Positions 1,401 to 3,662 of a stretch of 64,000 nucleotides of DNA are shown piece by piece; the first letter of the stretch is position 1, and the number at the start of each line of letters is the position of its first letter. The DNA is from Escherichia coli. Its GTDB lineage: Bacteria; Pseudomonadota; Gammaproteobacteria; Enterobacterales; Enterobacteriaceae. Where the stretch lies: the NCBI RefSeq assembly GCF_009931435.1, contig NZ_CP043414.1; one strand, written 5' to 3'. A program made the position numbers and the translations under genes. Under the pieces are notes generated by a model that saw nothing but the letters and a program-made list of their open reading frames with translations, made no database searches and had not been told where the DNA came from.

Positions 1401-1649
1401 TTGTGGCATTTTTCGGTTTTCAGCGGTAATGGTTTTTCTGTTTCTGGAAAGCGGCTCGCAAACACGCCCTCACACAATATATTTGATTGAAAGTTCGACG
1501 GCACGGTGAGCGCCAGTCTTCAGGGCAGAAAACAGCAAGTGATACCTCATTTCGTGGTTACACTTGCCGCCGTCATCGCTTCGCAGGAACCGGTATTGCC
1601 CGCCCTGGCCTGAGCCAGGGCCATCAATGCCATTATCCTGTTGGGATCT

Positions 1650-3662
1650 TTACAGCCATGCGTCTGGCGTCCACTCGGATAAAACTTTAGAAAAACGATA
1701 TTGTGCGTAGCGGACCATATCACGATATAACGAACTTATACGCAGCTGGTTGGCCTCTTCATTAGACAGATTATTGAAATCAAGCAATACCGCTTTGTAT
1801 GTATTAAAAGTTTGACTGCTTATCATATTTTCATCTAAAGAGTGAGCTTTAGCCAATAAAGCAAATGCATAACGTTTTAAAATTTTTGACGCATCAGGAA
1901 TACCGTAAAAGACATTACTATGAGAAATATTTGCAAATACGGCAGACAGACAGAAAAATATTTTAGACTTATCACTTTCACTGGCCTCTTTGAGATCCAG
2001 CATCATTAATAGATTAGTGTAATGTTTTTCTTTCAAAGTATGCTGTTGCCATTGGTCTGAATCGGTCATCAAAGAGGAAAATAATGATTTAAATTCTGTC
2101 GGTTGATTATCCGATTCTGGCACAAAGTCTGTTTTTCGCATTATTGCTGACATAAATACATCACGAATATAACCTTTCAATCCAAGAGCATTGAGAATCA
2201 ATTGGTGTTTCTTATTTTTCTGCGCATATTCCCATCCTTTTGCAAATAAAGGAAATGCACGCGTACAAATCGTTTCTGGATCATCTCTGACAACTTCATG
2301 GGTATCCTGCAAAGATGGATAAATAGAGTAACTATTCCAGATAGTCTTTTTCTGAACATTTGGCTCGAGCATTGAGATTAACGCCTGGTGCGATAAACGC
2401 ATTACTCGCCCGGAGTTATCGGATGATAACAGGATATAACATTTATTATCTTTATCTAACAATCCTTGCAGCTGATTGAAATTCAACTTTATTTCTTCAG
2501 TAACGAATTGTTTTATTTCAGGTAATACCTGATAATTGTGATAAAGGTCAAATGCTAAGTTTTTCTCTTCAACACTTCTGTTTTCAAAAAGCAAATCAAT
2601 AAATTGAATAAATCTATAATTTTCAGAAACCATCAACTCTGGTCTCTTTAAAAAGAGAGCATGGAAAAAGTTAATTATTTCCGTATCGTTACTCAGATTT
2701 TTATTTCTGAAGTAGCACAGATACGTATCCAATGCGCGCATAACAAGTTCATGATCGCTATTAAGTGGGGATTTTAATAGTTTTGCTATTATGGACGATG
2801 GGAATGCTACCATGTCCCGCAGCGTGAAGAGTTCCATGCCATCAGTTAATTGCGTTAGCAAATCTTTTACTGTTTTTATGTTATCAGTATTATCATTGAA
2901 AGATTCGTCTGCCAGAGACTCTAGTTTTTCTATCATCCCCCCGATTACAAATATATCTTTTTCGCTCTCCACGTCATGATTAGACATATCATCGACGATA
3001 TCTTTAACTTTACTATCACTTTCATATAGTTTTTCTCTCACAATATTATTAGCGTTTACTGCAGAAGTCGCATCATAATAGGATGGCGGAATAATAACAG
3101 AGAATTCGTTAGTGAATATAGAATGATATGCAAGATTATCATCATTCAATTTCTCACCAACGTTAAGCGAATTAATATCCCTCAGAATATGCGTCTCAAT
3201 CTGACTGTCAAAAAGACTTTTAGAAAAACCACTACCTTCAGTCAGTTCAATTTTCATCCTGAGTATTTTATTTTTGAGGTCAGAAAATGTATTTACATAA
3301 GGAATAAAAACATCTGATGAATTAGAGTTATTTTTCTTTCCATTAATATTATCTATTCTGACGGTGATCCCTTTCTCATCACGATGAATTGCATTATTCA
3401 TATTTATAGAGATCACATTTTCATGTCTGGATTGCCCGGTTTTAATCGTCATATTGATATCATTTGCGCTGATCTCCGAAATCTCACTGACGAATTTTTT
3501 AAATGCATTATAGCGCTGGTGGCCAGCATTAAATTTGCCAAATGAAACATAATATGCGAAGTGTTCAAGGAAACCATGTAATTCCAGTAAATTAACCGGG
3601 TCAGAACCCTGCACCATATTTAATAACATCGTCGCATAACCATTGCATTTTGAACAATCCAT
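1650..3662 (-). CDS. Hypothetical 670-aa protein in AT-rich island 1 (family X; C-terminal domain shared with the 765-aa protein at 23964-26261)
   Basis: Long uninterrupted ORF in AT-rich DNA. Segments YILLSSDNSGRVMRLSHQALISML and KILKRYAFALLAKAHSLDENMIS align with the 765-aa paralog. Ends ...PDAWL. Confidence 0.75.
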   Translation of the reverse strand: MDCSKCNGYATMLLNMVQGSDPVNLLELHGFLEHFAYYVSFGKFNAGHQRYNAFKKFVSEISEISANDINMTIKTGQSRHENVISINMNNAIHRDEKGITVRIDNINGKKNNSNSSDVFIPYVNTFSDLKNKILRMKIELTEGSGFSKSLFDSQIETHILRDINSLNVGEKLNDDNLAYHSIFTNEFSVIIPPSYYDATSAVNANNIVREKLYESDSKVKDIVDDMSNHDVESEKDIFVIGGMIEKLESLADESFNDNTDNIKTVKDLLTQLTDGMELFTLRDMVAFPSSIIAKLLKSPLNSDHELVMRALDTYLCYFRNKNLSNDTEIINFFHALFLKRPELMVSENYRFIQFIDLLFENRSVEEKNLAFDLYHNYQVLPEIKQFVTEEIKLNFNQLQGLLDKDNKCYILLSSDNSGRVMRLSHQALISMLEPNVQKKTIWNSYSIYPSLQDTHEVVRDDPETICTRAFPLFAKGWEYAQKNKKHQLILNALGLKGYIRDVFMSAIMRKTDFVPESDNQPTEFKSLFSSLMTDSDQWQQHTLKEKHYTNLLMMLDLKEASESDKSKIFFCLSAVFANISHSNVFYGIPDASKILKRYAFALLAKAHSLDENMISSQTFNTYKAVLLDFNNLSNEEANQLRISSLYRDMVRYAQYRFSKVLSEWTPDAWL

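Follow-up and report, generated by a model that had tools for sequence, protein, structure and literature searches.

We analysed a stretch of 64,000 nucleotides from Escherichia coli (assembly GCF_009931435.1, contig NZ_CP043414.1; hereafter the window), in which an islet with two genes lies between dinG and rhlE. One of the genes, espX2, codes for a protein of 670 amino acids that is similar to the type III effectors SopA and NleL, and the other is an open reading frame (ORF) for a protein of 561 amino acids. The present work concerns the GC-rich DNA at the dinG side of the islet, above all the 188 bp that follow the espX2 stop codon (the tail). Gene names follow the annotation of NZ_CP027579.1 (strain 2013C-4282), a record that matches the window at 100% over 1366-1720. 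In O157:H7 the 670-amino-acid gene is annotated as espX2, and other records call it 'type III effector'. The sequence TACTGTATAAACAGCCAATA upstream of dinG, which we take to be the SOS box, was recognised from the published dinG box. The features of the locus are compiled in Table 1.

Layout and composition of the GC-rich block

The interval 1401-1690, which a sequence-only reading of the window had described as one GC-rich segment between the dinG promoter and the island, is a composite. Positions 1401-1461 are backbone, 1462-1649 are non-coding islet DNA, and 1650-1690 hold the espX2 stop codon together with 13 codons. The overlap of the block with the 3' end of the 670-amino-acid gene was confirmed: on the minus strand, the stop codon occupies 1650-1652 and is preceded by codons 658-670 (SKVLSEWTPDAWL) at 1653-1691.

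The fraction of G+C (GC) is 0.396 in 1367-1461, 0.537 in 1462-1649 and 0.488 in 1650-1690, with a peak of 0.68 at 1576-1625, while espX2 as a whole has 0.347 and the gene for the 561-amino-acid protein 0.305. Within 1462-1649 we counted 101 G/C bases among 188, where about 62 are expected at the island composition (33%), a difference of about 6 standard deviations. Maximum likelihood placed the left change point in GC at 1496 (with a wide support of 1414-1568) and the right one at 1679 (support 1669-1758), which delimits a block of about 1496-1678. The GC-rich segment is therefore real but narrower than had been proposed, as 1401-1461 is AT-rich (about 40% GC), conserved backbone. The description of the DNA as backbone-like holds for its composition (0.537), but not for its affiliation, which is with the islet.

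The same reading had placed the last approximately 13 codons of the 670-amino-acid gene in the GC-rich DNA. The overlap exists, but GC-richness is confined to roughly the last nine codons (SEWTPDAWL). Among the 41-bp windows of the gene, its final one ranks in the top 2.7%, and the last 13 codons have a GC at third codon positions of 0.54, a value that is reached or exceeded by 11% of windows and is no outlier. A paralog of 765 amino acids elsewhere in the window ends in the codons TCG GTG GCT CCC AAA GCA TGG GGA TTA (15/27 G/C), and the GC of its 3' flank is about 0.38-0.42 despite these GC-rich final codons. Since the paralog combines GC-rich last codons with an AT-rich flank, the coding overlap of espX2 points to a Trp/Pro/Ala-rich C-terminal motif and not to the junction. 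Hence, the GC-rich end of espX2 reflects the conserved Trp/Pro/Ala-rich C-terminus of SopA/NleL-like proteins.

Table 1. Positions of the features considered here (window coordinates).
Feature	Position	Strand	Remarks
dinG, 5' part	1-1366	minus	start codon 1364-1366; annotated in the 100%-identical NZ_CP027579.1
Conserved dinG upstream region (backbone), 95 bp, GC 0.40	1367-1461		presumed LexA/SOS box TACTGTATAAACAGCCAATA at 1381-1400
Motif GGCTCGCAA	1453-1461		end of the conserved dinG upstream backbone
GC-rich non-coding left end of the espX2 islet (tail), 188 bp	1462-1649	minus	downstream of the espX2 stop; putative 3' untranslated region/terminator
Hairpin B	1523-1571	minus	1531-1541 pairs with 1561-1571, then UGUUUUCU; candidate intrinsic terminator of espX2
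Hairpin A	1602-1609/1614-1621 (core stem)	minus	8 bp, G+C, 4-nt loop; imperfect extension 1592-1631
espX2, 670 amino acids, SopA/NleL-like type III effector	1650-3662	minus	annotation and SopA_C match
Divergent intergenic region of the islet, AT-rich, GC 0.329	3663-3966		holds a 16-nt inverted repeat
ORF of 561 amino acids, second islet gene	3967-5652	plus	annotated as hypothetical protein
Islet right end, GC 0.35	5653-5756		hairpin AAGGGCAAAAG (5717-5727) / CTTTTGCCCTT (5739-5749), directly downstream of the rhlE stop
rhlE (backbone)	5758-7122	minus	stop codon 5758-5760
UvrB, ORF of 673 amino acids	28556-30577

Islet junctions and the origin of the tail

When 1200-6000 was compared by blastn with a K-12-like dinG-ybiA-rhlE locus (word size 7, E values up to 10), only 1200-1461 and 5757-6000 aligned, and 1462-5756 had no similarity to that locus. 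The insert comprises 1462-5756 (4,295 bp) and replaces the ybiA module of K-12. Precise mapping of the breakpoints, which the sequence-only reading had proposed, puts the left one at 1461/1462 and the right one at 5756/5757, so that the islet is delimited at single-base resolution (1462 to 5756/5757); the A at 5757, common to the insert form and K-12, leaves an uncertainty of one base at the right edge. The ybiA module, which codes for a NADAR-family N-glycosidase, sits like the islet between GGCTCGCAA and the rhlE stop and supplies its own rhlE-proximal terminator hairpin. It differs from the islet in size (737 bp) and in its opposite gene content, and the two have no sequence similarity.

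On the backbone side of the left breakpoint, 1367-1461 is conserved at 99% identity in K-12-like, Nissle, O157, E. albertii and E. whittamii sequences and at 79-86% identity in Phytobacter, Kosakonia, C. sedlakii and S. arizonae. Only 2 sites of this region vary among 12 alleles. Across 80 dinG loci of other species, the match to the window ends at 1461/1462 or, in two of these loci, at 1466. In an alignment of the left junction from five locus variants, the window and O157 part from K-12, Nissle and DETEC-P649 directly after GGCTCGCAA; the latter three share TAAC past this motif and then split, and SF-088 departs earlier, about 30 bp upstream of the motif.

In Citrobacter and Kluyvera, GGGCTCGCAA is followed directly or one base later by TTACTG, the rhlE stop codon, so that the site reads '...GGGCTCGCAA(A/T)TTACTG...' or '...GGGCTCGCAATTACTG...', with a typical terminator hairpin just before the rhlE stop. 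This arrangement is the empty site. Since GGCTCGCAA adjoins the rhlE stop or lies one base from it in these genera, all E. coli DNA between the two is inserted, ybiA included. The K-12 breakpoints and the empty site together put 1462-1649 inside the insert, and for this reason the GC-rich 188 bp are islet DNA. The block thus straddles the left junction of the espX2 islet, which corresponds to S-loop 57 of O157:H7 Sakai and is present here in its long two-gene form. EspX2 (ECs0876 = Z1019) has been placed in Sakai S-loop 57 (PMC2323221, PMC2749873), and an 'S-loop57 ... EspX2' entry is found in PMC2323221.

The tail is closely linked to espX2. Using blastn with 11-base words, we detected the segment 1462-1690 in 541 of 5,426 E. 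coli genomes, with one copy in each, and the espX2 coding sequence was likewise present in 541 of the 5,426, again as one copy each. In each of the 541 carriers, a single place matches at least 80% of 1366-1720. With the same search the tail was absent from the 4,885 genomes that lack espX2, and no paralogous copy was found; the 64-kb window itself holds no further copy. Ten metagenome contigs that contain a 36-nt probe from the tail all show the dinG-tail-espX2 arrangement. Neither blastn nor tblastx found the tail in 80 dinG loci of other Enterobacteriaceae, among them E. albertii, E. whittamii and another Escherichia sp. Plasmid and phage searches with the segment gave one 4.9-Mb replicon as the sole real match, the remainder being noise (E about 0.6), and one plasmid-labelled place occurs among the matches to the segment and to the espX2 coding sequence. 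The PLSDB entry NZ_CP134663.1, an E. coli replicon of 4.9 Mb in the plasmid collection, is evidently a chromosome.

Family searches of the tail were negative as well. Rfam 15 had no match in 1400-1700 at E values up to 10, peptides from all six frames of the tail matched neither Pfam nor NCBIfam, and a search of its open frames against 5.8 billion proteins returned a single match, a frameshifted ORF call over this very locus. The 3' flank of the 765-amino-acid paralog has no DNA similarity to the espX2 tail. Judged from these comparisons, the tail is outside every repeat, RNA or protein family tested here. Tracing a donor via relatives of EspX2 led only to E. coli clusters with at least 88% identity, and no donor was found; two metagenome contigs among these relatives have the identical arrangement.

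Overall, the comparisons identify the tail as islet DNA that has no relation to ybiA, occurs once per genome and is invariably passed on together with espX2. Of the two origins considered in the sequence-only reading, the one in which the island supplied its own GC-rich end is borne out, as 1462-1649 lies inside the insert and always occurs with espX2. We have high confidence in the structural and evolutionary identification of the tail as the islet's own non-coding end. The finding amounts to the ordinary left boundary of an islet that has already been described (S-loop 57, espX2) and contains nothing new. Its significance is mainly one of annotation, the tail being assigned to the insert rather than to ybiA and espX2 being recognised as full length.

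Hairpins downstream of espX2 and competing readings of the tail

espX2 is transcribed towards dinG, and the tail lies between the espX2 stop codon and the SOS box and promoter of dinG. The tail would be transcribed as the 3' untranslated region (3'UTR) of espX2, and on this strand two stable hairpins, A and B, are predicted to form, the second of which is followed by UGUUUUCU. Folding of 1462-1660 (199 nt) gave a z score of about -3.0 relative to shuffled sequences on both strands. Hairpin A has a calculated energy on the minus strand of -18.8 kcal/mol for the core and -23.3 kcal/mol with its extension. Hairpin B has an 11-bp stem, with the U-tract 3' of it on the minus strand, and is more stable on this strand (-17.9 kcal/mol) than on the plus strand (-13.3 kcal/mol), G-U pairs being formed only on the minus strand. 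Its stem is kept in 10 of 11 alleles, the U-tract is invariant, and two variable pairs change in a wobble-compatible manner. About 80-125 nt beyond the stop codon, shortly ahead of the dinG promoter that LexA controls, these hairpins may terminate the espX2 transcript or stabilise it; in the ancestral state, this task would fall to the rhlE terminator. The other parts of the 188 bp probably arrived with the insert and have no function, because they evolve at the neutral rate: the window and O157 differ by 5.9% in the tail and by 6.2% at 4-fold degenerate sites of espX2.

The tail resembles the Rho-independent terminators and structured 3'UTRs of acquired genes in that G+C-rich hairpins follow the stop codon and hairpin B precedes a U-rich run. 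Several observations weigh against a terminator or, more generally, against a functional tail. Hairpin A lacks a U-tract and is weakened by two changes in 4 of 11 alleles. Hairpin B differs from typical terminators in its large loop of 19 nt, and a scan for consensus terminators, whose loop limit is 8 nt, reported none. Covariation stays within the shuffle controls: its energy term is -0.49 kcal/mol, and the values observed are matched in 126-184 of 500 shuffles; two pairs are changed on both sides, which is also seen in 126 of 500 shuffles and has low power at about 5% divergence among 11 alleles. Moreover, variable sites make up 16% of the tail, the highest density of the region, compared with 10.9% in the 3' part of espX2 and 2.1% in the dinG upstream region. 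It must also be considered that the view of the tail as brought in with the insert rests on the breakpoints and the linkage and not on a traced source. Taking all this together, we consider it very likely that the best explanation as a whole is an islet tail with a putative espX2 3'UTR/terminator. On the folding predictions, it is plausible that one of the hairpins terminates espX2 transcription before the dinG promoter is reached, a tentative assignment whose chances we put at somewhat below even.

The sequence-only reading had also considered the GC-rich piece to be a remnant of ancestral ybiA-side sequence, which means old backbone left behind when the island entered beside or into ybiA. 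With a GC of 0.537 the tail does resemble the backbone (dinG 0.546, rhlE 0.56), but the BLASTN search that was to reveal such a remnant gave no K-12 match for 1462-1690, not even at word size 7 and E values up to 10 against the K-12-like dinG-ybiA-rhlE locus, and the tail is missing from the espX2-less E. coli genomes as well as from the dinG loci of the 80 other species. Moreover, ybiA is not ancestral at this site: a ybiA homolog lies beside dinG in 2 of 80 species representatives, and tblastn with YbiA gave fragmentary matches in E. albertii and a further Escherichia sp. only, and none in the window segment. The remnant is refuted on the criterion that the sequence-only reading itself had set, a missing match to the K-12 dinG-ybiA region, and we give this origin next to no credence. 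Far more serious is the reading of the 188 bp as a hitch-hiker or relic, functionless DNA of the donor or of an earlier occupant of the slot that was kept between the espX2 stop and the dinG promoter; it differs from our best explanation solely in whether any part of the tail is functional. Neutral-rate divergence, the high density of variable sites, the lack of covariation and of a family match of any kind, and a composition unlike the 30-35% GC of the remaining islet all speak for it, and the repeated re-use of the rhlE-dinG slot makes layered remnants plausible. The stability of folding, about 3 standard deviations above shuffles, argues against a relic, as does the fact that 10 of 11 alleles retain hairpin B with its U-tract at a position that calls for a terminator; in addition, no earlier occupant with a similar sequence was seen in the 5,426 E. 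coli genomes or in the 80 other species. A relic thus remains a strong contender, although we would not quite call it probable.

That the tail contains an independent gene, for a small RNA or a small protein, is very improbable. Most of the segment is open in three of the six frames, including a 67-codon ORF at 1487-1690 on the plus strand and a run of 59 codons past the espX2 stop in the frame of that gene, and the predicted structure is stable. Open frames of such length are, however, expected at 54% GC; no promoter-like site was found on either strand in 1250-1850, there are no relatives in Rfam, Pfam, NCBIfam or protein databases, and the alleles differ by neutral-rate substitutions and one single-base deletion. 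Even less credible, in our view, is a small mobile or repeat element, resembling a miniature inverted-repeat transposable element (MITE), a repetitive extragenic palindromic (REP) element or an insertion sequence (IS) end, bounded by the 23-nt inverted repeat 1473-1495/1683-1705. This repeat is the best in 1440-1740 (17/23 complementary), was reached by none of 100 plain shuffles and by 3.5% of composition-preserving block shuffles, and brackets the GC core, with the change points at 1496 and 1679 adjoining its arms. Yet the unit is present as a single copy per genome in the 541 carriers and nowhere else, it has no flanking direct repeats, and allele differences at 1474 and 1493 break the pairing of the arms on the minus strand. 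The right arm, together with 33 bases on its inner side, consists of espX2 codons whose product aligns with the C-terminal ends of NleL, SopA and the paralog, and since these codons are conserved in the family, the block cannot be a later insertion. The MITE-like reading was thus rejected on account of the conserved coding arm and interior and the single-copy unit. Without dismissing the repeat entirely, we attribute it to chance or at most to a weak long-range RNA contact.

A stronger version of the islet tail with a 3'UTR/terminator, in which the tail is predicted to be a selected insulator module, namely a structured 3'UTR that is possibly processed to a small RNA, appears very improbable to us. 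If it were true, the module would allow an AT-rich effector gene of the H-NS type to sit head-to-tail 285 bp upstream of the start of the SOS-regulated dinG without read-through into the dinG promoter, and the weak pairing 1473-1495/1683-1705 would close the RNA domain onto the last espX2 codons.

EspX2, the rest of the islet and the variable slot

Our data indicate that espX2 is not truncated at the junction, as the sequence-only reading had argued from the C-terminal ending shared with the paralog. The Pfam family SopA_C matches EspX2 with an E value of 3.7e-14, positions 51-176 of the 177-position profile covering residues 540-669 of 670. EspX2 also matches the PDB entries of NleL and SopA (E 5e-14 to 5e-13), and the alignments of its C-terminal half with NleL (3NAW) and SopA (2QZA) extend through the terminal A-W. 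The alignment with the 765-amino-acid paralog (22% identity over 380 residues, E 8e-23) ends on A-W as well. The likeness to the HECT-like E3 ligases NleL and SopA thus consists of the C-terminal half, aligned up to A-W. There is a difference at one prominent position: in a phmmer alignment to 3NAW, which is of modest quality there, EspX2 has an Ile opposite the Cys of the NleL FTCTAV motif. The Cys of this FTCT(AV) motif is presumably the catalytic residue, and EspX2 has no Cys at all after residue 571. Hence, EspX2 appears to lack the key cysteine of the NleL-type C-lobe. Pfam detected no pentapeptide repeats in EspX2, unlike in the 765-amino-acid paralog, and a table in the literature lists espX2 under 'PPR'.

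The window and O157 alleles of EspX2 differ at 50 of 670 amino acids, and the divergence of the gene is 3.9% at codon positions 1 and 2 against 6.2% at 4-fold sites. Some genomes have espX2 as a pseudogene that is interrupted by a stop codon or truncated at its N-terminal end. From these comparisons, the gene looks weakly constrained.

The corresponding S-loop 57 of O157:H7 Sakai occupies the same site with the same left junction; its tail is 94% and its espX2 95.5% identical to the window, and the right-hand 416 bp (5341-5756) likewise precede rhlE. O157:H7 differs in lacking 3868-5340 (1.47 kb) and retains just a 3' remnant of the gene for the 561-amino-acid protein, which is intact in the window. 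The full two-gene insert is found in 156 of the 5,426 genomes, i.e. in 156 of the 541 positives. No Pfam or NCBIfam match was obtained for the 561-amino-acid protein. Between the two islet genes lies a 16-nt inverted repeat at 3725-3740/3842-3857 (CAGAAATCGCTCATTT / AAATGAGCGATTTTTG), whose arms are 94% complementary and 101 nt apart; it may act as an operator or form a structure. Just after this repeat, the deletion of O157 begins. At the right end of the islet, the 11-bp hairpin AAGGGCAAAAG ... CTTTTGCCCTT (-17.9 kcal/mol) stands in for the K-12 hairpin ATGCCGGGCATAGCCCGGCAT. As the islet hairpin (5717-5749) replaces that of K-12, the insert has also swapped the rhlE terminator.

On the other side of the islet, dinG (1-1365) differs by 3.7% between the window and O157, and 12 of the differences cluster in 501-600. 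This divergence seems high for a core gene and may reflect recombination tracts that flank the islet.

Comparison of the locus across lineages shows that the interval from the rhlE stop to the SOS promoter of dinG is a re-used variable slot in Enterobacteriaceae. The slot is empty in several Citrobacter, Kluyvera and other genera, and holds an 87-bp filler in E. coli E69, an intact ybiA in K-12, a 5'-truncated NADAR gene in Nissle and a prophage in SF-088. A PaaA2/ParE toxin-antitoxin pair occupies it in E. whittamii and in some E. coli (the toxin-antitoxin pair of DETEC-P649), a three-gene module of about 4.2 kb (GntR, lyase and DASS transporter) in C. portucalensis, and the espX2 islet in the window and O157. 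Fourteen further loci from Citrobacter, Phytobacter, Enterobacter and others carry inserts of a size like that of the 4.2-kb module. Such a slot may be useful for mapping hot spots of the accessory genome.

Two further AT-rich regions of the window were noted. A second islet at 23964-28397, between yvcK and uvrB, has the same architecture as the espX2 islet: the SopA-like effector gene for the 765-amino-acid paralog with pentapeptide repeats (23964-26261, minus strand) diverges from a gene for a protein of 550 amino acids. Similarity between the 550- and 561-amino-acid proteins is weak, at 27% over 62 residues (pairwise E 5e-4), and the full second islet is present in 24 of the 5,426 E. coli genomes. 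A third AT-rich block at about 16700-19050, with a GC of 0.31-0.43 per kb, contains three tandem genes of the Bax-inhibitor-1/YccA family, namely ybhL and two others.

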